This document shows, one piece after another, positions 28,811 through 53,168 of a DNA stretch of 58,851 nucleotides. The DNA comes from a virus (lineage: Duplodnaviria; Caudoviricetes), in IMG/VR virus record IMGVR_UViG_3300042477_000507, positions 1 through 58,851 of that record, one strand, 5' to 3'. The position numbers were made by a program, and so were the translations under genes. Below the pieces are notes generated by a model. That model saw only the letters and a program-made list of their open reading frames with translations. It made no database searches and was not told where the DNA came from. The stretch's first letter is position 1. Each line of letters opens with the position of its first letter.

Positions 28811-28819
28811 TTCAGAAAC

Positions 28820-35050: not shown

Positions 35051-35080
35051 TTGACAGGTTGTTTGATCTGATGCTACCTT
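35051..35080 (+). promoter_or_regulatory. sigma70-type promoter
   Basis: TTGACA-18-TACCTT with TG extension. Confidence 0.6.
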
Positions 35081-35105
35081 GCATCTGTTCAACACACAAG
35101 ACGGC

Positions 35106-35867
35106 ATGTCCGTTCATCAGAAGCTCATGCAGGCGCGTATCGCGCTTCAGGGCAAAAAACTCTCAAAAAGCGGTAAGAACAAATTCGCTGGATACAATTA
35201 CTTTGAACTTGGGGACTTCCTCCCGACTGTTCAAGAAATCTTTCTGTCGCTTGAATTGTCAGGTGTCGTTAGCTACGGCAAAGAAGAAGCCACGCTGACC
35301 ATCACCGATTGCAGCAACCCAGACGACTGCATCGAGATCTTCAGCCCCATGTCCAGCGCTGCTCTCAAGGGGGCGCATGAGATTCAGAACCTGGGCGCAG
35401 TGCAGACCTACCTCCGTCGCTACCTCTGGGTGACAGCCATGGAGATCGTTGAGCACGACGCCTTGGATGCTGTTCTGGGCAGCGATGGCGGCACCTCTGC
35501 ACCGAAGGCAGCTCCTGCAGCTCGCAAGCCCGTTGATGAGACACCCGGTGGTCTGCGAGCCAGCGAGGCGTTTGCACCTACCTCGGTCAACGAGAAGCTT
35601 GAAACCAAGTTGATGGACCTGGGCATCACGCAGTACGGAATCAAGACCGTGCTCACGATCACCGAATCACTCAGCCTCGCCGAAATCCCTGAAAACAAAG
35701 CGACGGCGCTGTTGAAAGCAGTGGGCAAAGATCACGTCAGGATGTTCAATCAGGGCAAGAACAGCAAGGGCGCTCAAATTATTCCTGAGCCCGTCAGCGA
35801 CAAGATCAATACCAAGTCGATTGACGATCTTGCAAAAGCTGCTGAAGACGCATTCGGGGACGACTGA
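35106..35867 (+). CDS. erf: ERF-family single-strand annealing protein
   Basis: KSGKNKFAGYNYFELGDFLP and Q.LGAVQTYLRRYL...D. Confidence 0.85.
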   Translation: MSVHQKLMQARIALQGKKLSKSGKNKFAGYNYFELGDFLPTVQEIFLSLELSGVVSYGKEEATLTITDCSNPDDCIEIFSPMSSAALKGAHEIQNLGAVQTYLRRYLWVTAMEIVEHDALDAVLGSDGGTSAPKAAPAARKPVDETPGGLRASEAFAPTSVNEKLETKLMDLGITQYGIKTVLTITESLSLAEIPENKATALLKAVGKDHVRMFNQGKNSKGAQIIPEPVSDKINTKSIDDLAKAAEDAFGDD

Positions 35868-36070
35868 TGAAAATCAACGCAAGTCAGCGAGTTACTTTTA
35901 CCCTTCCTCGCCCGATCTACGAGAAACTTGTTGAACTGGCACAACTCAGCGATACAAGCATTGCTGGGCTGACGAATCGAGCCACTCGTGAGTGGTTGGA
36001 GGAGAATTACAGGCAGTTCATTGCTTTTTACTCAAAAGACAAGCCAGCGGCGCAAGAGCGCTGGAAGTAA
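35867..36070 (+). CDS. ribbon-helix-helix (CopG-like) protein
   Basis: RVTFTLPRPIYEKL..LA....SIA.L...A..EWL. Confidence 0.7.
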   Translation: MKINASQRVTFTLPRPIYEKLVELAQLSDTSIAGLTNRATREWLEENYRQFIAFYSKDKPAAQERWK

Positions 36071-36091
36071 CAATCAACCAAAGTATTCATC

Positions 36092-36487
36092 ATGAAAAAC
36101 AACACTGTTTTCACAATCAGCATTACCGTCGCATCTCTTGCGGCACTCGCTTTTGTCCTTTGGGGGCTCCCTCAATTGGGTGTTTACAACCGCACCTTGG
36201 CGGGCAAAGCCTCATTGATGGAAGCTGAAAGCACACGCCAGGTGAAAGTGCTTGAGGCGAAGGCCAAGAAAGACGCAGCATCGCTCGAAGCGGATGCCGA
36301 GATCGAACGCGCTAAAGGTGTTGCAGAGGCTAATCGCATCATCGGTGATTCTCTGAAAGATAATCCGCGCTATTTGCAGTATCTGTACATCGTTGGGCTA
36401 CAAGAAGGCAGCGAGAAAGGCAACCGCACAATCTACGTGCCTACCGAAGGCGGACTACCTGTTCCGACGCTCGGCATCGAAAAGTGA
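36092..36487 (+). CDS. membrane-anchored coiled-coil protein (SPFH C-terminus-like)
   Basis: TM segment; AEIERAKGVAEANRIIG.SL...YLQYL; IYVPTEGGLP. Confidence 0.7.
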   Translation: MKNNTVFTISITVASLAALAFVLWGLPQLGVYNRTLAGKASLMEAESTRQVKVLEAKAKKDAASLEADAEIERAKGVAEANRIIGDSLKDNPRYLQYLYIVGLQEGSEKGNRTIYVPTEGGLPVPTLGIEK

Positions 36488-36690
36488 CTTCACGCTATCT
36501 CGTTTACCAAGTTGGCTGCATCGAGTGCGGTGTGTCTTCTTACCCCATTAAGGCGTGCGTAACACTTGAAGACGCTCAAGCTGTAGCAAAAGCCCATCCG
36601 AGCACCTGGGAAACCGAGGGCGGTGAAGGATACGTAACCATAATTGACCTAGAAGAATGCAAAACGGTTGTTGATTGTCCCAGCGCTTAG
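36484..36690 (+). CDS. small cassette ORF
   Basis: GCIECGVSS; stop TAG is part of a putative recombination site. Confidence 0.6.
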   Translation: MTSRYLVYQVGCIECGVSSYPIKACVTLEDAQAVAKAHPSTWETEGGEGYVTIIDLEECKTVVDCPSA

Positions 36691-36711
36691 ATCTACACAC
36701 TTCTCTTTCTC

Positions 36712-36912
36712 ATGACTGACCTTCCCTTTCTTGACCTCAAGGTTTCCAACCCGTGTCCAACAATCGTTTACTCGCCAACGAAAGTTGTCTGTCCCAAGCA
36801 CGGCACACACCCTCATACGATCAGCAGCACTATCCCTGGCCATGAAGGCACTTGGTGCATGTTGTGCGCTTTAGAACAACTACACCCTCCGCTTCCTACA
36901 ACCAATGACTGA
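36712..36912 (+). CDS. small Cys/His cassette ORF
   Basis: CPKHG...WCMLC. Confidence 0.65.
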   Translation: MTDLPFLDLKVSNPCPTIVYSPTKVVCPKHGTHPHTISSTIPGHEGTWCMLCALEQLHPPLPTTND

Positions 36913-37268
36913 CCACCCGATCACCCCGCCACCTGAGCTGGTGCATCAGTGGCACAAAGAAACGTGCAAAGATCCCTGTAACGGGGGGCACTTTCTTTGA
37001 ATCAAAAACACTGAAACACGTCGCCACCCAAGCCGCCCGCTGGGGCGCTGATGAACAGCTAGAACAAGACGCAAGGTGGCTTGACACCTGTGCTTTGTTC
37101 AGCACACACTTAACAATCACACCATCTGGAGATGCATTGAGACAAGCAATGCGTTCCAAGCCGCCGAGCTTGAAGGAGCAGGCGCTGGAAGAAGTAGGCG
37201 CCTTTGAAGGTATGGGCACATGCAACATCGACATCATCCGCCGTGCTCTTGAATCCCTGCCTGAGTAA
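36905..37268 (+). pseudogene. HPITPPPELV-type ORF, frameshifted at G6 (36983-36988)
   Basis: Removing one G gives a 120-aa ORF continuing ATQAARWGAD...KPPSLKEQAL...IRRALESLPE. Confidence 0.7.
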
Positions 37269-37273
37269 TTACA

Positions 37274-37486
37274 ATGACCCATCAGATTGAACCTGTTGAA
37301 TTTATCAAACCTGACTTTGCTTACATCTATGCCAAAGTTGCTAGGCATGTAGCAGCAGCTTATGCTGTATGCGGTTATGACGAACATGTTTTAGATAAAG
37401 AACTCCGATTGGCAATGGAAGCCATTGAGTTGTTTGAAAAAGCAAGCATGACCATTTACTCTGTTATTCCTAATCCTAAGGATTAG
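37274..37486 (+). CDS. small cassette ORF
   Basis: ORF track; stop abuts putative recombination site. Confidence 0.6.
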   Translation: MTHQIEPVEFIKPDFAYIYAKVARHVAAAYAVCGYDEHVLDKELRLAMEAIELFEKASMTIYSVIPNPKD

Positions 37487-37510
37487 TAGTCAACATCACT
37501 TCTCTTCCTC

Positions 37511-37807
37511 ATGACTGACTTCCGAAAGCTTTGCGATGAGCTACTCGATGAACTTCAGTTTCAGACAGACTGGAGCGTTGCAGAAGAATTGAAAGAACGC
37601 GCCCGCGCTGCACTAGCCGAGCCCGAGCCGGAGGGGTCGACAGAAGTCGAGATCGCATCCATTTTGCTGGCCTATGCCGTTGTTGAGCCGCAGGTGGGCG
37701 TAAGCCGAATCCTGCACGAAAAGCATTTCGGCAATGCCGCCCGCGCCGTTCTCGCCCGTTGGGGCAACCATCCGGGATCTCCAGATAGTTCAACCCAGCC
37801 CTCCTAG
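37511..37807 (+). CDS. small cassette ORF (MTDFR.LC.EL...RARAALA.PEP...ARAVLARWG type)
   Basis: ORF track; bracketed by two putative sites. Confidence 0.7.
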   Translation: MTDFRKLCDELLDELQFQTDWSVAEELKERARAALAEPEPEGSTEVEIASILLAYAVVEPQVGVSRILHEKHFGNAARAVLARWGNHPGSPDSSTQPS

Positions 37808-37908
37808 TCCGATCAACCTCTGCGTTTGCCAACTTGTAAGCCGTACTTACACGTTGCCCGAACGTGTTAAACATTCCGGAATTTCCGGACAGTTCCTCCA
37901 CCTCTTAA

Positions 37909-38145
37909 ATGACTGACATTCTTGACGACAACCACTACGAGTGGGAATTGGAGGATGACGAAGGCGAATGGCAAGCCGGTGGCTCAGCCAACAGCCTGGA
38001 AGATGTACGGCGTGAAGGGATGCGTTATCTGCAGACCTACGCTCAAGAAGGATTTCACAAGCTAATTATCCGTCAGCACTGCACAAGAACTATTCAGGTG
38101 ATTACCAATGGGCTGAACTTTCACCCGCTGCTCAGGCAGTTTTAA
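37909..38145 (+). CDS. small acidic cassette ORF
   Basis: ORF track; C-terminus probably extended by the extra G at 38110-38112. Confidence 0.6.
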   Translation: MTDILDDNHYEWELEDDEGEWQAGGSANSLEDVRREGMRYLQTYAQEGFHKLIIRQHCTRTIQVITNGLNFHPLLRQF

Positions 38146-38327
38146 CGGCTGTGACGCTGACAAAATACGACGTACCTCCAGAAGGGTTGCCTGCTTTTGC
38201 TGAAGAAATGGCTCCTTTGCTTGCCGCCGCCCTTCGCGCTGCTGCGGATCAGTTCTTTTTTGACTGGAATGGCATGTGCTGCGAAGAGCATCTCAAATCC
38301 ATCGCTACCGAGCTTGAAGCCCTATGA
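38108..38327 (+). pseudogene. LSPAAQAVL paralogue 1, start out of frame by one G
   Basis: ATG-G-GCT GAA CTT TCA CCC GCT GCT; reads AELSPAAQAVL...AAALRAAADQ...IATELEAL*. Confidence 0.7.
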
Positions 38328-38557
38328 CTAAACTTTCACCCGCTGCATATGCAGTATTGGATGCCTACATGAACAACTGTGGCTGGCTAGATGGCCCTCT
38401 CGAAAAAGATTATCGCTGCGCTGCCGCCGTCCTGAGGGCTGCTGCGATGCAACTGCGCAGCGAAGAGTATGCAATCTGCAATGGCTCCTCTTACGCCATG
38501 ATGATCGAAATAGACGATTTACTTGACCTTGCCACCGAACTAGAAAGTGCTTCATGA
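38324..38557 (+). CDS. LSPAAQAVL paralogue 2
   Basis: MTKLSPAAYAVLDA...AAAVLRAAA...LLDLATELE. Confidence 0.75.
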   Translation: MTKLSPAAYAVLDAYMNNCGWLDGPLEKDYRCAAAVLRAAAMQLRSEEYAICNGSSYAMMIEIDDLLDLATELESAS

Positions 38558-38700
38558 ACGACCTTAAAGATAGCCTAATCACCGCATTTGGCGTTCTGGT
38601 CTTCATCTTCTTTGTCCCCATCGTGGGGCTTGGGGGAATCTGGACTGCGTTCTACATTTACTGCGGACTTACGCAACAATCATGCGAGGTGAAGAAATGA
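38554..38700 (+). CDS. small membrane protein (48 aa)
   Basis: Manual read; ATGA overlaps at both ends. Confidence 0.6.
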   Translation: MNDLKDSLITAFGVLVFIFFVPIVGLGGIWTAFYIYCGLTQQSCEVKK

Positions 38701-38909
38701 CTGATCTTTCCCCTGCCGCGCAGGCGGTGCTGGATGCCGCCGACAATGTGCGCATTAACGTCGATTGGTGGCCAGAAGGTATGCCGGAGATTGTCGCCGC
38801 CGCCCTGCGTGCTGCTGTAGCCCAGACGCAAAGGCATCCTGGCCACGACATATGGCAGTGCGACGCCGACGACTTACTCGCCATCGCTGATGAGCTTGAT
38901 GCCCAGTAG
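38697..38909 (+). CDS. LSPAAQAVL paralogue 3
   Basis: MTDLSPAAQAVLDAA...AAALRAAV...LLAIADELD. Confidence 0.75.
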   Translation: MTDLSPAAQAVLDAADNVRINVDWWPEGMPEIVAAALRAAVAQTQRHPGHDIWQCDADDLLAIADELDAQ

Positions 38910-38983
38910 TCAGACCCACCTCTAGCCTTCTTCTAGTCAACTCCTAATTTCCCTCAAATTAGAACTTCAGTCTCTCCGCCCCC

Positions 38984-39256
38984 GTGCCTCTCAACAAAGC
39001 CTCCCTGCCCTGTCCCAAATGCAACGCACTGATCACAAAGGTAACGAGTTCCCTAAGAACTCCGAGCGGAGATTTTTACAGATACAGGCAGTGTGAGTTC
39101 TGCGGGCACAGATACAAGACGATACAGCTCGCTGAAATTCTTGCAGCACCAGGCGAGGTAAGAACAACTCACGAAGGTCACGCAGCCATTGTCAACTGGA
39201 AGAAAGTTTTTGATCGAGTCCTTCCGTCTCTTTTGCAGAAACATGACCAAACTTGA
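38984..39256 (+). CDS. NrdR-like zinc-ribbon protein
   Basis: CPKC...KVTSS...RYRQCEFCGHRYKT. Confidence 0.65.
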   Translation: MPLNKASLPCPKCNALITKVTSSLRTPSGDFYRYRQCEFCGHRYKTIQLAEILAAPGEVRTTHEGHAAIVNWKKVFDRVLPSLLQKHDQT

Positions 39257-39416
39257 ACACGAACTCTGTCTCGCCATCTCCCCGATCTTCAATGATCGAG
39301 CGCCTGGAGAATGGGAAGCGGAATCAAAACGCGCGTTGCTTGCAATTATCGTTTACTTGCGAGATAATGGGTACTGGCAGGCTGCCGACTTCTTGCTCTC
39401 AAACACTTCTCTTTAA
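39243..39416 (+). CDS. hypothetical protein
   Basis: Start moved to MTKLEHEL. Confidence 0.5.
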   Translation: MTKLEHELCLAISPIFNDRAPGEWEAESKRALLAIIVYLRDNGYWQAADFLLSNTSL

Positions 39417-39425
39417 TCAGAACAC

Positions 39426-40187
39426 ATGGCGCATCCCAAGTCAGGCTTCTACGTCAAAGACGACCACGAATACGTCTCCGTCAGCTCCGTTCTAGGCAGA
39501 ACGTCTGAGTTATTTGATCCCAGCAAAATAAAGGGTCTTGAAATCTGGCGACAGATGGAGCCTAACTGGGAAGACATCATGCAACGGGCGCAGCGCAGGG
39601 GAACGATCATTCACGCTGAAGTTGAAATGTCGTTCATGGGTGACGCAGAAAAACACAAAATGGATCATGCGACAATGGATGAAGTCATGAATTACAACAT
39701 TCATGAGTACATCACTTATCTCTCGCCCGTCCTTGACTTAATCAAAAAAGAAAACTTCAAAAACGAAGTCAGCGCTCCATCTTTCTTGATGGAAGAGGCT
39801 CTTTACTGCCACTTGGGCTATGCAGGAACCGCTGACTTGCGCCTGCACTGGGACGGTCAATACAGCATCTGGGACTGGAAGACAGTGCGCTCATACAAAG
39901 AAGAGGGCGTCAAGAAAAAAGCAAAGTCAATGTCGCATTACAAAAGCGCTGAAGTGCAAATTGCTGCATATGCACTCGCTCACAATCTTGCTGTAAAACG
40001 AGGCGAGCTTGACAATGAGATAACTCAGGGTGTAATCTGTGTTTGCTACGACTGGCGTGAACCTCATGTTCATGTCCTGAATAAGCAAGAGCTGAAAGCT
40101 CGTGCGCAAGAATTTATCGAGCGTTACAAAGCTTACTGCTCACTCGAAAACACCCAATTCCCAAGGCTTATTGAGCCTGAACTCTGA
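39426..40187 (+). CDS. PD-(D/E)XK exonuclease
   Basis: SVSSVL, RGT.IH, YAGTADL...IWDWKT, QIAAYA. Confidence 0.85.
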   Translation: MAHPKSGFYVKDDHEYVSVSSVLGRTSELFDPSKIKGLEIWRQMEPNWEDIMQRAQRRGTIIHAEVEMSFMGDAEKHKMDHATMDEVMNYNIHEYITYLSPVLDLIKKENFKNEVSAPSFLMEEALYCHLGYAGTADLRLHWDGQYSIWDWKTVRSYKEEGVKKKAKSMSHYKSAEVQIAAYALAHNLAVKRGELDNEITQGVICVCYDWREPHVHVLNKQELKARAQEFIERYKAYCSLENTQFPRLIEPEL

Positions 40188-40543: not shown

Positions 40544-40546
40544 TTG

Positions 40547-40745
40547 CTTGGCAGAACACGGTCTGATCCCAATAAAACAAGACCGATTCACCTCCCCGCG
40601 CCAACGCTTCTACTGCTCGGGCCAAGCGGTAGCCGACAAAGCACCAGCGCACGCAACGTCAAGGGGTCTCGTCAGGGAGTAAGGCGGCGCCGCCCTTCGC
40701 ATGAGGGTTCTGGGCCTTGCCAAGGTGAATCGTTCGTAAGCCCAA
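40547..40745 (+). ncRNA. candidate structured RNA between ssb and dNMP kinase
   Basis: Several long-range complementarities (see findings); ends at a terminator; no family recognised. Confidence 0.5.
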
Positions 40746-49155: not shown

Positions 49156-50010
49156 TCATAGTACAGGCATTTCGTATTCTTGGGTGGTGTTGCAGTAGTG
49201 CTTGAAGATCACCTCGCTGGTATTTCCGGCCCATGCAGCGACCTGCGGTACGGGAATCCCTGCTTCGATCCAGCGACTGATAGCGGTGTGGCGACAATCA
49301 TACGGACGATAGACGTGCGAAATTAAGCCGACACGCTTTATTGGAAGTAGTTTTTTGCGAAAATAGCTCTGAAAGGCAAGACGATCCCATGGAAATATAA
49401 AATCATTGCTATGTGGAACTGAGTCAAGAATTTCTTTGCAGCGCTTATTCAGTGGAACCCAGCGCTTTTTATTTGTTTTTGTGCTATTTTTTAAGCCATG
49501 CGTCAACGTATAGTTCTGATGCACAAGAATTTTGCCATCCTTAATGTCCTTCCACATAAGCGCTCTGACTTCGCCAGTTCGCATTGCTGTTTGAAGCATG
49601 AACTCTGCATAGTATCCCCAATTTACGTTTTGATATGTAAACTTGGCCCCGAGAACGCCTAGTACAATCTCAACTTCATTTCTGGGTATTACGATAATTT
49701 CATTGTCACGTTGAGGCGCTTTTGGCATCTTGAAACTTGCGAGGGGGTTTCGCTCAAGAAGCGCTACGTCCTCTTGTGCCGCCCATTTGCACATTGTTTT
49801 AAGGTACATTGCAACTCGGCGAGACATGAGAACTGGTTTTTGTCCCAGCACCCAAATCATCGCTTGGCGCGCCTGCAATGGATCTTGCACGGGACAGCCT
49901 TTCAGCCATTTCGTAACTTGGCGATAGTCAGAGGTCAGGCTGGTTGGACAGAGCGAGATGGATCGCTCTTGCAGGAACGCATCCCAAAGTTCGAACAGGG
50001 TCGGTGGCAC
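49156..50010 (-). CDS. tyrosine recombinase (short, no arm-binding domain)
   Basis: TAMRTGEV.AL.W.DI, K..TKT, RPYDCRHT, W.GN, KHY: R-K-(Y)xxR-(N)-Y catalytic set. Confidence 0.92.
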   Translation of the reverse strand: MPPTLFELWDAFLQERSISLCPTSLTSDYRQVTKWLKGCPVQDPLQARQAMIWVLGQKPVLMSRRVAMYLKTMCKWAAQEDVALLERNPLASFKMPKAPQRDNEIIVIPRNEVEIVLGVLGAKFTYQNVNWGYYAEFMLQTAMRTGEVRALMWKDIKDGKILVHQNYTLTHGLKNSTKTNKKRWVPLNKRCKEILDSVPHSNDFIFPWDRLAFQSYFRKKLLPIKRVGLISHVYRPYDCRHTAISRWIEAGIPVPQVAAWAGNTSEVIFKHYCNTTQEYEMPVL

Positions 50011-50041: not shown

Positions 50042-50073
50042 AATTCATATTTCAGGCGCAGAAGGGTCAAAGA

Positions 50074-50271
50074 CTAGTAACGAGTGCCGGTGTAGCTGCA
50101 GCTTGGGCAATGCACCCCATACTGCGGTGGCCAACTTGTAAGGCAAACTGATGGGTTGGAGTCCATCAGCTCCTGTTGGCACTCAGGGCAAGCGATCCCG
50201 TTGGGATGGGGCTGGGTGTTTAGCTGGAACATGCCCAGCGCCTGCTGATTGTGTTGATCGAGGGTCTGCAT
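50074..50271 (-). CDS. 65-aa zinc-ribbon ORF bracketed by two putative recombination sites
   Basis: CPEC...CPSC; sites at 50062-50076 and 50272-50286. Confidence 0.7.
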   Translation of the reverse strand: MQTLDQHNQQALGMFQLNTQPHPNGIACPECQQELMDSNPSVCLTSWPPQYGVHCPSCSYTGTRY

Positions 50272-50288
50272 TAGAGAAGGGGACTCGT

Positions 50289-53168
50289 CTAGTTGGCTTC
50301 GAGTGCAGCAACACGAGCCTTCAGTGATTCGATTTCACCAATGGCTTCCTGCAACGCAGCCGTCAGCAGCGGCACCAGCTTGGACTGGTCGATGCCTTGG
50401 TAGACGGGGTTGCCATCATCATCCACTGCATCTTTGGAGCCCGTGACCGCTTCAGGAACTACAGCTTGAGTTTCGTGAGCGATGAAGCCGTCAACAGTGT
50501 GGCTGGGGTCAGCCTTGAAGTTGAAGCGGCTAGGCTTCAGTTGCCGAAGGCGGGTGATGCCGTCAGTGACTGCGGTGACGTTTTCCTTAAGGCGGTAGTC
50601 GGAAGAGGTGTTGTAAGAGGTGGCCGTTGTCGAGACACTAACTGAACCGACTTCTGTTTCGTTGCGGTAAAAACGAATAGCGTTTCGGGCATCGGTATCA
50701 TCAAAGGTTTGGTTAATATCCAGCACCGAAACAGTGCTTTTACCGTTGTAAACCCAGCGACCAGTATCACCCGCGTACGCAGAGGATATTGTGTTTGTAG
50801 CAAGCGTACTAATGGTCCCGCCAATATACAAACTTCCATCACTAGAAATCCTCATCCGCTCCGTCGGAGAACTCGCCCCATCCGCAGTAGTGGAGAACAC
50901 TAGGCGGCCTGGGTAGCTAGATCCAGCAGTCCAAGTCCCTCCATCCCTTTGTGCCTGTATCCACGCAGCATTTACATGCGTGGCATCGCCAAACATGATA
51001 TAGCCGAGGTCTTCTGTTGAAGTTGGTCCATTTGTAGTTGTGCAGCAACGCAACACACCAGGACCAGTGGTACCGCTGTATCCTTGGAGAAGGAGTGTTG
51101 TATTGCTAGACGTGGAAGACGTACCAACTAAGAGGCGCTTCGATGTATCAATGGTGACTGCTGCGCTGCCGTTTTGAATAATGTCAAAGCCGCCAGCGTA
51201 GTTAGTTCCAATGGCGGCGTTCTGTGTGGTGGAACCACCGCGCAACTCCATGTGGCGAGTGCCGTCGCCAACACGAATAATTGGCGCCGAAGAATTAAGG
51301 ACTTCTAGTGTGGTGTTAACTGTAGAAGTGCCAATCCCTACGTTGCCTGCGGAGTTGATTACCAACAAAGGTGTTGTGAACGTTGTCCCCCCTGCAGCGG
51401 TAGATGGCGTGATCTCAAGTGCATTATCTACATTTTGTTGAGCGCCTATTTTCCAGTTATATTTTGTGCCTGTTCCATAAAAGATAGCCGCACCAGTATC
51501 GCCAGCATCATTTGATCCAATACTTACAACTGTTGCGCCGCCAGCAACGTGTAACTTTGAGCCAGGCGAACTAGTCCCTATGCCTACGTTGCCTGAGGAG
51601 TCGATGCGGGCGCGTTCGGAGGGAGTTGTGGCCGTGCCATTAGAAGACACGGCGAGTACAAGCGCCCCGCCATTATTGGCACCCGCATTAGGGTTAAGTG
51701 CTTGAATGGCCGCAACTGCTTCGCTGCCGCCAAAAGTATTGGAACAGAAAAACTGCATCTGAGCAATGTTGCCAGCATTTGATGCAGACTGGTTCCTCAG
51801 CGTGAGAAGATTTGAGGTAGTTGAACTACCTGTGGCACCGGCAATGTCTAGTGTCGTGCTAGGACTCGTAGTGCCCACCCCTAATCCAGTGGGCGTAAGG
51901 CGCATCATCTCGGTTGGGTCCGAGGCGCTATTTGTAGTCTTTATTGCAAACGCAAGGCTTCCAATGCGATGATCGCTGTTGAGGCCGTAAGCGCCAATCC
52001 TCGCCACTTCTCTGGTGCCAAGCCAGGAAGAAGTATTGTCTGAATAGTATTTAAGTTGAGCCCCCTCTTGACTGGCATTTAGGTAGCGACCTGACCGAAT
52101 TCCTAAAGCATTTGCCGCATCGGTTGTTCCATTAGCAATTTCGAATTTATCGCTAGGCGAACTAGTCCCCACGCCTACGAGCCCTGCCGAGGTGATGCGC
52201 AGGCGTTCCTGTTCATTTGTTTGAATAGTGAACGGAATTGCTGAGCGCGTTTGGATAGACGCAAGTGATCCAGTGTTGTAGAACTCACAACCGACGCCGC
52301 TGTTTCCGGTTAAGCGAAGCGTAGCCGTTGTGCTTCTTTGGATTTCAACACCACTGCCATTACCAAATCCGGCAAACGAAGATCCAATATTGATATTCCC
52401 ATTCGCATCAACAAACAACCTGCCAGACCCACCAGTGCTGATGGCTACTTGGTCTGCGCCGGGGGAGTAGATGCCGGTGTTGGTGTCGCCAGTGAATGCA
52501 ATGGAAGGTGCAGCAGCACTACCACCTGCAGCGCTAAAAATGCCAGTGGTTTGAACTGTCTGGCTGCCGAAATCAGGACTAATCTTGGTGCCAGCAATGG
52601 CGGCGCTTGAATTAATATCTGCGTTGACGATGGTATCATTTCTAATCATCGTACTGGTCACTGTTTCACTATCACCAGTAGTGACAATGGTGCCATTCAC
52701 ATCAGGCAGCGTGATCGTCTTGTCGGACGCAACTGACGCCGGGGCCTGCAGGGCGATGTGATTGGTACCATTTGCAGTGGTCTCGCGGAAGCGCACCTGC
52801 TGCTGGTTGTCCATCACCAGCGCACCAGTCATCACGTCGCCGTTCACGTCTACGAACGTGCCGCTCTCGCTGCGCCACGCTGATCCATCCCAGATCTTGA
52901 GCACGTAGGTACCGCCGGTGGTGTCGAGCCATTGCTCACCCACGCTGTTGCCCGTTGCACCGCCGCTAGCAGGCGAAACGTTGGGTGCCGTAGTGCCAAC
53001 ATGCACCGGGCCTACTTTTACCAGGCCACCAGTGCTGTCCTTGAAGAACAGACCAGGGCTTGCACTATTTGTATTGATTGCGGGACGACCATCAACAAGT
53101 CCCGCAGGAAGGGGGCGCTTGTTTGCGGTGCTGCTGCGGAGAAGTTGCAGGGGATTAACGCTGGACAT
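50289..53168 (-). CDS. modular tail fibre with C-terminal intramolecular chaperone (peptidase S74)
   Basis: Repeated ER.RI...G.VG.GT junctions; SDYRLKEN...GFIAHE.Q.VVPEAV...LVPLL...coiled coil. Confidence 0.9.
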   Translation of the reverse strand: MSSVNPLQLLRSSTANKRPLPAGLVDGRPAINTNSASPGLFFKDSTGGLVKVGPVHVGTTAPNVSPASGGATGNSVGEQWLDTTGGTYVLKIWDGSAWRSESGTFVDVNGDVMTGALVMDNQQQVRFRETTANGTNHIALQAPASVASDKTITLPDVNGTIVTTGDSETVTSTMIRNDTIVNADINSSAAIAGTKISPDFGSQTVQTTGIFSAAGGSAAAPSIAFTGDTNTGIYSPGADQVAISTGGSGRLFVDANGNINIGSSFAGFGNGSGVEIQRSTTATLRLTGNSGVGCEFYNTGSLASIQTRSAIPFTIQTNEQERLRITSAGLVGVGTSSPSDKFEIANGTTDAANALGIRSGRYLNASQEGAQLKYYSDNTSSWLGTREVARIGAYGLNSDHRIGSLAFAIKTTNSASDPTEMMRLTPTGLGVGTTSPSTTLDIAGATGSSTTSNLLTLRNQSASNAGNIAQMQFFCSNTFGGSEAVAAIQALNPNAGANNGGALVLAVSSNGTATTPSERARIDSSGNVGIGTSSPGSKLHVAGGATVVSIGSNDAGDTGAAIFYGTGTKYNWKIGAQQNVDNALEITPSTAAGGTTFTTPLLVINSAGNVGIGTSTVNTTLEVLNSSAPIIRVGDGTRHMELRGGSTTQNAAIGTNYAGGFDIIQNGSAAVTIDTSKRLLVGTSSTSSNTTLLLQGYSGTTGPGVLRCCTTTNGPTSTEDLGYIMFGDATHVNAAWIQAQRDGGTWTAGSSYPGRLVFSTTADGASSPTERMRISSDGSLYIGGTISTLATNTISSAYAGDTGRWVYNGKSTVSVLDINQTFDDTDARNAIRFYRNETEVGSVSVSTTATSYNTSSDYRLKENVTAVTDGITRLRQLKPSRFNFKADPSHTVDGFIAHETQAVVPEAVTGSKDAVDDDGNPVYQGIDQSKLVPLLTAALQEAIGEIESLKARVAALEAN
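50888..52447. repeat. seven in-frame TAGN-N7-WCTN putative recombination sites in tail fibre
   Basis: 50888, 51116, 51326, 51572, 51869, 52163, 52433; spacings 228/210/246/297/294/270. Confidence 0.7.

Follow-up and report, generated by a model that had tools for sequence, protein, structure and literature searches.

The entry and exit of new small genes in mosaic phage genomes are mostly unresolved. Here, we analyzed IMG/VR virus record IMGVR_UViG_3300042477_000507, in which such junctions are visible: a 2.4-kb array of small genes on the + strand (36484..38921) carries short conserved sequences, here called linkers, at its gene junctions. The whole record, a linear-class sequence of 58,851 bp with an estimated completeness of 85%, is referred to as the window. 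Integron attC sites are folded imperfect palindromes of 57 to 141 bp, and heterospecific lox/FRT sites, which have 13-bp arms, are used for recombinase-mediated cassette exchange. In T4-type phages, the conserved intergenic motifs of PeSL cassettes flank small ORFan genes in hyperplastic regions, according to PMC2839356 and PMC4122927; indels and replacements between close relatives end there, and the motifs were proposed as homologous-exchange points between unrelated sequences. As described there (PMC2839356, PMC4122927), a PeSL measures about 100 bp and consists of a sigma-70-like promoter and a terminator stem-loop. For lambdoid phages, PMC3029335 cites earlier work (its references 21-22) that proposed short conserved boundary sequences at mosaic junctions as substrates of general recombination, and it reports that no conserved sequence was found at most mosaic junctions. 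Phage annealing proteins in relaxed recombination are the subject of PMC3945230 and PMC8093625.

The four junction sites of the array are distinct members of one linker family, not copies of one site. They share a frame of about GCC-N-(A/C)G-TAG-TC-N5-CAC-T(T/A) and differ in the 10-mer after TAG, which is ATCTACACAC in linker F, TCAACATCAC in linker A, TCCGATCAAC in linker B, and TCAGACCCAC in linker C. On balance, we favor the view that the array is a mobile module of small genes, that the linkers are its conserved boundary sequences, and that exchange proceeds by general or microhomology recombination. They offer a defined, testable substrate for asking whether short boundary sequences drive exchange, which enzymes act on them, and how little identity is needed.

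TAG linkers are concentrated in small-gene arrays

The four junctions at 36688, 37487, 37805, and 38907 (sites 1 to 4) read exactly as the first-pass annotation had given them, and all four face the + strand. As it had also noted, the upstream stop codon lies in or next to the left arm: the TAG at each site is the stop of the upstream open reading frame (ORF), namely, 36484-36690, 37274-37486 (with a second TAG at 37487), 37511-37807, and 38697-38909. Sites 1 and 2 continue with CTTTCTC and CTTCCTC, respectively, and then with ATGACTGAC. The pattern TAGT-N7-ACYTCT matches the window three times, in each case on the array's + strand, compared with a shuffle mean of 0.20, and none of 100 shuffles reached three. 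Site 1 is a looser relative of this motif, beginning with TAGA rather than TAGT. The consensus AGTAGT-N7-ACTTCT that had been proposed fits the sites at 37485 and 38905 within two mismatches, but not sites 1 and 3.

In the window alone, the strict core TAGTC-N5-CAC matched twice against 0.8 expected, a count equaled by 18 of 100 shuffles, and the per-genome motif counts of G001-G010 were near those of a reversed-pattern control. However, in 37 non-redundant arrays (61.9 kb), the + strand held 16 copies of the core and the minus strand one, whereas 243.6 kb of array flanks contained none on the + strand and one on the minus strand. The longer pattern of the first-pass annotation gave 8 matches in the same arrays against 0 in the flanks. 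After non-overlapping gene ends of close relatives, TC-N5-CAC followed 10 of 75 TAG stops, 0 of 110 TAA stops, and 1 of 274 TGA stops. Because the tail is tied to TAG stops and scarcely to TAA or TGA, the TAG belongs to the element. The window's longest-ORF set is crude (118 ORFs, with two true array genes displaced by antisense ORFs); among its 22 TAG-ending ORFs, such a tail was found only in the array and at 50076/50291, and the relaxed motif also matched at 50-53.3 kb. The predicted concentration of the motif in the array was thus borne out (3 against 0.2 expected in the window; 16 in arrays against 0 in flanks on the + strand), its frequency after TAG stops elsewhere was not similar, and judged by the refuting conditions that the first-pass annotation had set, its idea survives.

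A logo of 80 contexts, collected at no more than one mismatch to the core, adds GCC at -6 to -4, A/C at -2, and G at -1 on the 5' side, and T at +13 followed by A/T on the 3' side. The conserved unit was sharp-edged, from TAG to +13, in all comparisons, with linker lengths of 13 to 20 nt, and 8 of 26 linkers place a second stop codon at +13 in another frame. The inverted repeat described previously stood only at the consensus level: five of six positions pair at site 2, and fewer at the other sites. Over the 80 contexts, the arms of the consensus dyad AGTAGT/ACTACT did not covary: complementary cells numbered 179, and shuffles averaged 182.6. For TAGT-N7-ACTA, 46 to 74 of the 80 contexts were complementary per pair, half of these positions having seeded the collection, and the outward extension to AGTAGT/ACTACT is weak, with left-arm positions -1 and -2 fitting 24 and 34 of the 80 contexts. 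The original observation is therefore partly confirmed, being real but over-regularized.

Four linker types keep one order

Searches with Erf and the nuclease gave 130 loci; L numbers denote loci and contigs, and G numbers denote genomes, with G000 being the window's own genome and L009 the array locus of G002. Linker F (site 1, 36688..36704, + strand) reads TAG, ATCTACACAC, TTCT. Its left half, TCTACACAC, recurs 5' of HPITPP-family genes in L009, L004, L003, G008, and at least nine more contigs, and its right half varies among the contigs that have TCTACACAC. Linker A (site 2, 37487..37503, + strand) is TAGTCAACATCACTTCT; its 13-mer stands after ...ALESLP(D/E/S) genes in at least 13 contigs besides L007-L009 and G008, and the downstream sequence differs. 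Linker B (site 3, 37805..37821, + strand) is TAGTCCGATCAACCTCT, of which TAGTCCGATCAAC was found in L003, L004, L009, L056, G008, and at least seven further contigs, always downstream of A. Linker C (site 4, 38901..38923, + strand) reads GCCCAG, TAG, TCAGACCCAC, CTCT; TAGTCAGACCCAC occurs in L006, L008, L009, L012, G008, and at least seven further contigs, always last in order, and the GCCCAG-TAG of this linker is retained even without a preceding gene.

The order F-A-B-C was kept in 19 of 19 arrays having at least two typed linkers, comprising seven of the first loci and 12 listed contigs. The count for the first loci (7/7) covers in-array hits and leaves out four one-mismatch hits outside arrays or inside genes, and that for the contigs (12/12) holds among the matches listed. 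These contigs came from searching the viral collection for a 14-mer of linker A, which gave at least 118 stretches; most of the 80 examined looked like chance matches, and only the approximately 15 loci with an ...ALESLP gene context were used. The complete F-A-B-C set was present, among the matches listed, in the window, G002 (L009), G008, and contigs L256, L269, and L302. Genome G011 has the full set, and G012 has linkers F, A, and C. In G008, ThyX and a GP88-like gene flank the set in place of Erf and the nuclease, and therefore the module itself moves between genomic places.

The genes in the slots between linkers differ between phages. Among the arrays listed, the spacing from A to B ranged from 86 to 752 nt and that from B to C from 210 to 1102 nt. 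Types A, B, and C each precede three to five different sequences, and A normally follows an ...ALESLP gene. When 35 pairs of TAG ends with at most one mismatch in the 10-mer were compared, neither flank was alike in 12 pairs and only the upstream flank was alike in four; the same comparison gave 3 of 70 for TAA ends, and many of the pairs of TGA ends were one orthologous site after ssb. L073 shares the 19-nt linker tcattaccactaatcaccc letter for letter with L071/L019, and the genes on either side of it differ. Within each linker type, the N5 does not vary between phages in which the neighboring proteins have about 40% identity.

Array content turns over between linkers

The first-pass annotation had called the region an accessory array, and it is indeed highly variable among relatives. 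The gap between Erf and the nuclease ranges from 3 bp (adjacent genes) to 4817 bp in 26 distinct relatives and is 3559 bp in the window. In the closest relatives, the flanks are 80-90% identical and the region 36.7/36.95-38.93 kb is mostly non-homologous, with homology resuming at 38930-38937.

Contigs of four other lake or freshwater runs were aligned to 35900-39400, and the joints described here are those of assembled contigs, not raw reads. A contig of run X4 joins 37261 to 37487 with CTCT between, and a contig of run X7 continues after 37261 with CTCG and then TAGTCAACATCAC. In both variants, the 70-amino-acid (aa) ORFan at 37274-37486 is gone, leaving the usual ...SLPS-TAG-linker A arrangement; in X4, the forms with and without the ORFan are present at similar depth (42 and 45). 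A second X4 contig joins 37503, the last base of the linker A 17-mer, to 38113 with ATGC between, so that linker A is immediately followed by an LSPAA-family gene, an arrangement also seen in L003. In another X7 contig, 37895 is joined to 38901 with GATCCA between, placing a structured element (37822-37895) next to GCCCAG-TAG-linker C, so that this element is the sole content of the B-C slot in that strain. Many other contig joints lie at conserved islands inside paralogous genes. Some indels in co-occurring strains thus end at the sites, at linkers A and C, and many joints lie elsewhere.

Across the 37 arrays, 262 breakpoints were scored as the ends of high-scoring segment pairs of at least 85% identity, a noisy stand-in for crossovers. 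Linkers held 20 of them (2.7-fold enrichment), overlap junctions 23 (1.7-fold), other gene borders 48 (1.65-fold), and gene interiors 171 (0.8-fold).

The arrays have two recurring junction styles, one being an 8-nt start/stop overlap, GATGACTGA or AATGGCTGA, and the other TAG plus TC plus a G-poor spacer. The window contains six + strand ATGACTGA words, five of which are starts of array genes (MTD...), at 36712, 36905, 37511, 37909, and 38697. In relatives, ATGACTGA is a start/stop overlap (..DD* / MTD..), with a density of 0.79/kb in arrays against 0.11/kb in flanks.

Linkers in transcripts and translation

The linkers are unpaired in minimum-energy RNA folds, and site 1 folds worse than 195 of 200 shuffles (z = +1.77). 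A hairpin across the linker was accordingly rejected, as there is no covariation and the predicted folds leave the linker unpaired. A scan limited to the sigma-70 consensus found no sigma-70-like promoter at the linkers and one site in 34.5-40.5 kb, at 39340 (shuffle mean, 4.7). None of 16 terminator-like sites is at a linker, no Rfam family matched 34-41 kb at E ≤ 1, and no complementary word longer than 8 nt, and hence no RNA pairing partner, was found in the 28-46.6 kb transcript.

In most contexts, a start codon follows 11 to 24 nt after the TAG; none comes within 70 nt at sites 3 and 4 or at the type A linkers in L008 and L009. Because pyrimidine-rich leaders without a Shine-Dalgarno sequence are common before genes across the window and spacers are G-poor after all three stop codons, a role of the linkers as spacers for translational restart is plausible. 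A read-through fusion of neighboring ORFs was rejected: the 24-nt spacers of sites 1 and 2 keep the frame, but those of many relatives measure 11, 14, or 19 nt. A generic translation leader was rejected as the sole explanation, since the motif is absent from flanking genes.

The tyrosine recombinase and its neighboring slot

The first-pass annotation had proposed that a recombinase 10 kb away also assembles the array and that one enzyme may serve both whole-gene cassettes and in-frame protein modules. The window encodes a 284-aa tyrosine recombinase (49156..50010, minus strand; PF00589, E = 5.5e-12; phrog_1 integrase, E = 4e-36). In NCBIfam, it gave only a marginal XerD match (E = 0.008, 15.5 bits against a cutoff of 329.6) and no match to an integron integrase model at E ≤ 0.01, and no solved relative was found by sequence. 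A 65-aa zinc-ribbon-like ORF (50074..50271, minus strand), with homologs in G002 (83-84%) and L155 (59%), is located between a tail-fiber gene and the integrase gene. The tail-fiber gene stops with TAG plus a 17-nt spacer ending in CCCCTTCTCTA, followed by ATG (50272..50291, minus strand; a relaxed-pattern match), and the small ORF is itself followed by the linker-style junction TAGTCTTTGACCCTTCT (50060..50076, minus strand). Hence, the same kind of junction does bound the small ORF next to the recombinase; the likeness that had been claimed holds in relaxed form, with TAGTCTTTGACCCTTCT from 50076 serving as the small-ORF stop, but it is not exact. A close variant, TAGTCTTTGACAC, occurs in L145, L172, and L195.

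Homologs of the integrase with 61-82% identity were found in 80 loci of other phages (L141-L220). In this second phage group (384 kb), the integrase strand has 45 copies of the strict core, compared with 5 on the opposite strand. The layout there is tail fiber, linker, one to three small same-family genes each ending in a TAG linker, TAGTCACCTTCAC, integrase, and lysis genes, and 11 contexts with different upstream sequence share TAGTCACCTTCAC about 20 nt before the integrase start. The window shows this arrangement too, on its minus strand from 53168 to 46567, where there is a single small ORF. In five large integrase-bearing records, no nuclease match was found, by a search that had no positive control.

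PF00589 was present in G000, G013, and all 14 control genomes. It was not found in G001, G002, G003, G005, G011, G012, G014, and G015 (profile search; protein search for the first set); the estimated completeness is 82% for G001, 94% for G002, 100% for G003 (terminal repeats), 65% for G005, 99% for G011, and 97% for G012, and 100% for G013. Among the array-bearing genomes at least 90% complete, three of five lack a tyrosine recombinase, and a search of G000-G003 and G008 turned up no serine recombinase. The integrase gene is an indel when compared with G002: the distance from the small ORF to the next match is 76 nt in G002 and 896 nt in the window. G002 has Erf and no integrase, G008 and G013 have the integrase and no Erf, and G011 and G012 have neither. 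Erf/exonuclease was rejected as the dedicated enzyme, as Erf is present in only one of five array-bearing genomes. No recombination enzyme is common to all array-bearing genomes.

These results speak against assembly of the array by the nearby recombinase, because G002 and G011 hold the full linker set without PF00589 and the integrase is an indel. A role of this enzyme at the linkers was likewise not supported, given four sequences in fixed order, 242 of 262 breakpoints off the linkers, and arms of 4 to 6 bp without covariation. The tyrosine recombinase is most likely an ordinary, horizontally acquired phage integrase.

Two further observations concern this region. In the second phage group, the integrase homologs have a tail-fiber gene with a small-gene slot on one side and the lysis genes on the other, which is not where a lysogeny integrase usually lies. 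Within the window's tail-fiber gene, a perfect palindrome, GGTAGTT-C-AACTACC (51814-51828, minus strand), with TCAAATCTTCT after it, fits the relaxed pattern on either strand and may be relevant to the separate tail-fiber finding of the first-pass annotation.

Proposed mechanism and alternatives

The 2.4-kb array is best read as a hyperplastic small-gene module of a lake phage, placed here between the Erf and exonuclease genes. The TAG of a linker supplies the stop codon to whichever ORF stands upstream, and F, A, B, and C, by holding the same relative order in many phages, delimit slots. Slot content would turn over by homologous or microhomology-dependent recombination between co-infecting relatives, the probable crossover points being the linkers themselves, the ATGACTGA start/stop overlaps, and short islands of conserved sequence within paralogous genes. 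Repeated exchange could keep a linker identical while the DNA on either side is replaced. The G-poor, unpaired linkers would then serve as intercistronic spacers, with ribosomes restarting 11 to 24 nt past the stop, and a dedicated recombinase would not be needed.

We ranked general or microhomology recombination first, a pure expression function second, and a recombinase third. A chance resemblance among four low-G, TAG-stop intergenic stretches is extremely improbable; the window's own two strict-core matches (0.8 expected; equaled by 18 of 100 shuffles) and the counts in G001-G010 near the reversed-pattern control would allow it, but it was rejected on the 3 matches against 0.2, the 16 against 0, and the identical 13-mers in the same order in 19 arrays. 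It is conceivable, though we think it doubtful, that the linkers are expression signals only, that is, functional intercistronic elements (a termination-reinitiation spacer or a regulator site) inherited with the module, with gene turnover caused by unrelated illegitimate recombination, of which only gene-border events survive selection. The starts 11 to 24 nt past the TAG in most contexts, the G-poor and predicted unpaired linkers among common Shine-Dalgarno-less pyrimidine-rich leaders, and the second stop at +13 in 8 of 26 linkers agree with such a signal, as do the enrichment of breakpoints at other gene borders, a fixed order that suits vertical inheritance of the module, and an N5 kept per type despite deeply diverged neighbor proteins. 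However, the motif is absent from 243.6 kb of flanking genes in the same operons and is therefore not the general start signal of the phage; no start codon lies within 70 nt at sites 3 and 4 or at the L008 and L009 linkers of type A; neither an RNA pairing partner nor an Rfam family was found; and a pure signal predicts neither identical linkers between unrelated genes nor indels ending exactly at linker edges.

Site-specific recombination, in which the 284-aa tyrosine recombinase acts on the linkers in cis or from a co-infecting phage, appears unlikely. The linkers would be core sites with inverted arms AGTAGT/ACTACT around a 7-bp overlap region, and different N5 spacers would make them heterospecific, so that each slot exchanges only with its counterpart and the order is kept. 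We are equally skeptical that the linkers form a natural heterospecific site set for the slot-by-slot swap of promoterless cassettes at both the Erf-exonuclease module and the tail-fiber-integrase slot; if this were true, the system would be a phage-borne, order-preserving counterpart of the integron. The consensus dyad with its 7-nt spacer, the TAG within the motif, the uniform orientation, the sharp edges from TAG to +13 with each spacer type kept as a unit, and the strain indels ending exactly at linker edges fit a recombinase. So do the 11 upstream contexts joined to one TAGTCACCTTCAC and the strand bias of 45 to 5, and because a linker-bounded slot adjoins the integrase, directly on its 5' side, in the window and in the second phage group, the recombinase retains a small share of our belief. 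Against it stand the lack of PF00589 in eight relatives, with all four linkers present in G002 and G011, the integrase indel relative to G002, and five integrase-bearing genomes without a match to the exonuclease module (no positive control). In addition, the arms are 4 to 6 bp long without covariation, the left arm fits in no more than 24 (position -1) and 34 (position -2) of 80 contexts, linkers do not coincide with 242 of the 262 breakpoints, NCBIfam gave no integron integrase and only a marginal XerD, and the integrase-proximal linker lies where an intercistronic spacer would be, about 20 nt before the start.

General or microhomology recombination, our preferred explanation, also faces contrary points. 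A linker of 13 to 20 nt is short for efficient homologous recombination and has the size of a recombinase core site, and the consensus dyad TAGT-N7-ACTA, extending to AGTAGT/ACTACT, points the same way, as do the strand bias of the strict core in the second phage group and the TAGTCACCTTCAC shared by 11 contexts there. No recombination enzyme is shared by the array-bearing genomes, Erf being present in one of five. The type-identical N5 despite about 40% identity of the neighbors could equally indicate a sequence-specific function. Finally, the 171 intragenic breakpoints are a majority of the 262, the breakpoint proxy is noisy, and the strain joints come from assembled contigs.

Genes of the array and genome context

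The array follows an SPFH/protease-like gene (36092-36487, + strand; phrog_11227), which itself follows Erf (35079-35867, + strand). Its first gene is the 68-aa ORF ending in the TAG of linker F (36484..36690, + strand), which has 81-87% homologs in 12 loci and a weak DNA match to Synechococcus phage S-H1. Next is a 66-aa ORF, MTDLPF... (36712..36912, + strand), with a cysteine/histidine pattern and homologs in 14 loci. The HPITPPPELV...ALESLP-family gene (36905..37268, + strand) is split over two frames at a G6 run (36983-36988): the intact proteins of L009 and G008 matched by tblastn in frame 1 at 36911-36991 and in frame 2 at 36987/37020-37265, and intact relatives are single ORFs of about 115-120 aa. 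A true frameshift, an assembly error in the homopolymer, and a slippery site are candidate causes of the split. The 70-aa ORFan (37274..37486, + strand), between this gene and linker A, has no homolog in any fetched locus, and the 98-aa ORF MTDFRKLC... of the '...ARWG' family (37511..37807, + strand) has 37-47% homologs in 14 loci. Neither the 66-aa nor the 98-aa ORF had a Pfam or PHROG match.

Downstream of linker B lies the conserved structured non-coding element (37822..37895, + strand), with two predicted hairpins; its RNA fold has z = -2.87, 1 of 200 shuffles folds as well, and it is 89% identical in L007/L059. The following 78-aa ORF (37909..38145, + strand; 85% identity to L005) has its 3' end lengthened by an extra G at 38110-38112, and the window reads ATGGGCTGA at 38108-38116 in place of the relatives' ATGGCTGA. 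Owing to the extra G, the first of three xLSPAAxAVL...ELEAQ paralogs (38109-38327, without ATG; 38324-38557; and 38697-38909; + strand) has lost its start codon; these paralogs have relatives in 12 loci. Contigs of X4, X6, and X7 lack the G, showing a 1-nt deletion at 38110. A 48-aa hydrophobic ORF (38554-38700, + strand) lies between the second and third paralogs. The right flank (38934..38983, + strand) starts with TAGTCAACTCC, followed by the hairpin CTAATTT-CCCTC-AAATTAG (38944-38962), which is kept in 11 of 12 aligned relatives and lies 5' of a zinc-ribbon gene (38984-39256, + strand).

The recurring array families are HPITPPPELV...ALESLPD, xLSPAAxAVL...ELEAQ, MTDYK...ARWGK, and MPKRIDLTDE.... 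They have no Pfam or PHROG family, and the protein atlas held only virus clusters without a family for them; the HPITPP and xLSPAAxAVL...ELEAQ clusters are virus-only and without a Pfam family. Two islands of 31-33 nt in HPITPP- and LSPAA-family genes (37156-37186 and 38220-38252) are 100% identical with flanks of about 70%, and their summed contig depths were 7792 and 2700, compared with about 45 for the flanks. These islands are either very widely shared or a recombination hot spot.

The + strand from 28.8 to 46.6 kb carries early genes, including DnaD-like, DnaB, PcfJ-like, Erf, and SPFH/protease-like genes and the array onward. After the zinc-ribbon gene comes the PD-(D/E)XK nuclease (39426-40187, + strand), the exonuclease of the Erf-to-exonuclease module; further early + strand genes encode SSB, dNMP kinase, RusA, MazG, ThyX, dCTP deaminase, and a sigma factor. 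The minus strand carries a lysozyme/peptidase gene, the tyrosine recombinase gene, and two tail-fiber genes, and no tRNA gene was found in the 58,851-bp window. The leader TCAGAAAC or TCAGAAAAC stands directly 5' of the ATG in several conserved genes of the window (28811-28819 and 39417-39425) and its relatives, including the nuclease gene and the first early gene. Separately, an intergenic word, TGA-TT(T/G)CTTGGCAGA(A/G)CAC, follows ssb (window 40544-40565) and is kept in many relatives despite diverged flanks.

DNA matches to deposited phages were short stretches of 70-76% identity, four of five to Synechococcus phage records, and the runs containing the record's stretch were mostly lake-water or freshwater metagenomes. 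Because of these short matches and the mainly lake and freshwater runs, the phage may be a cyanophage. In RNA runs X21-X24, 0.06-0.10 of sampled words were present, which is no measure of expression.

Comparison with known systems

Like integron cassettes, the array consists of promoterless small genes in one orientation with a conserved 3' element able to overlap the stop codon, and in the second phage group it adjoins a tyrosine recombinase gene. Unlike attC sites, the linkers are 13 to 20 nt long and unpaired and have no covarying stem (179 against 182.6). The recombinase of the window has no integron-integrase match, and its gene lies about 10 kb from the array; where a recombinase gene adjoins the small genes, it is co-directional with them. 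The site order is fixed (19/19) rather than varying, and most array-bearing genomes have no recombinase. The linkers thus fail every tested integron feature, and they also fail the PeSL definition. Heterospecific lox/FRT sites provide an analogy only: in both cases, a common arm frame with different spacers flanks slots whose order and orientation are kept, but the linker arms are far shorter, and the action of an enzyme on them is a proposal.

The likeness to PeSL cassettes lies in linker-bounded indels (37261-37487, 37503-38113, and 37895-38901) and in the 2.7-fold breakpoint enrichment. Unlike PeSLs, the linkers measure 13 to 20 nt, have no promoter- or terminator-like site and no stable fold, contain the upstream stop codon, and occur as distinct types in fixed order. 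The lambdoid boundary sequences share with the linkers the same short border sequence between differing flanking modules (neither flank alike in 12 of 35 pairs and one flank alike in four). Unlike them, the linkers form a motif family with a TAG-TC-N5-CAC frame, are tied to TAG stops, and are confined to one small-gene module found at different genomic places. The array thereby marks virus-only small gene families that spread among lake phages as a module.

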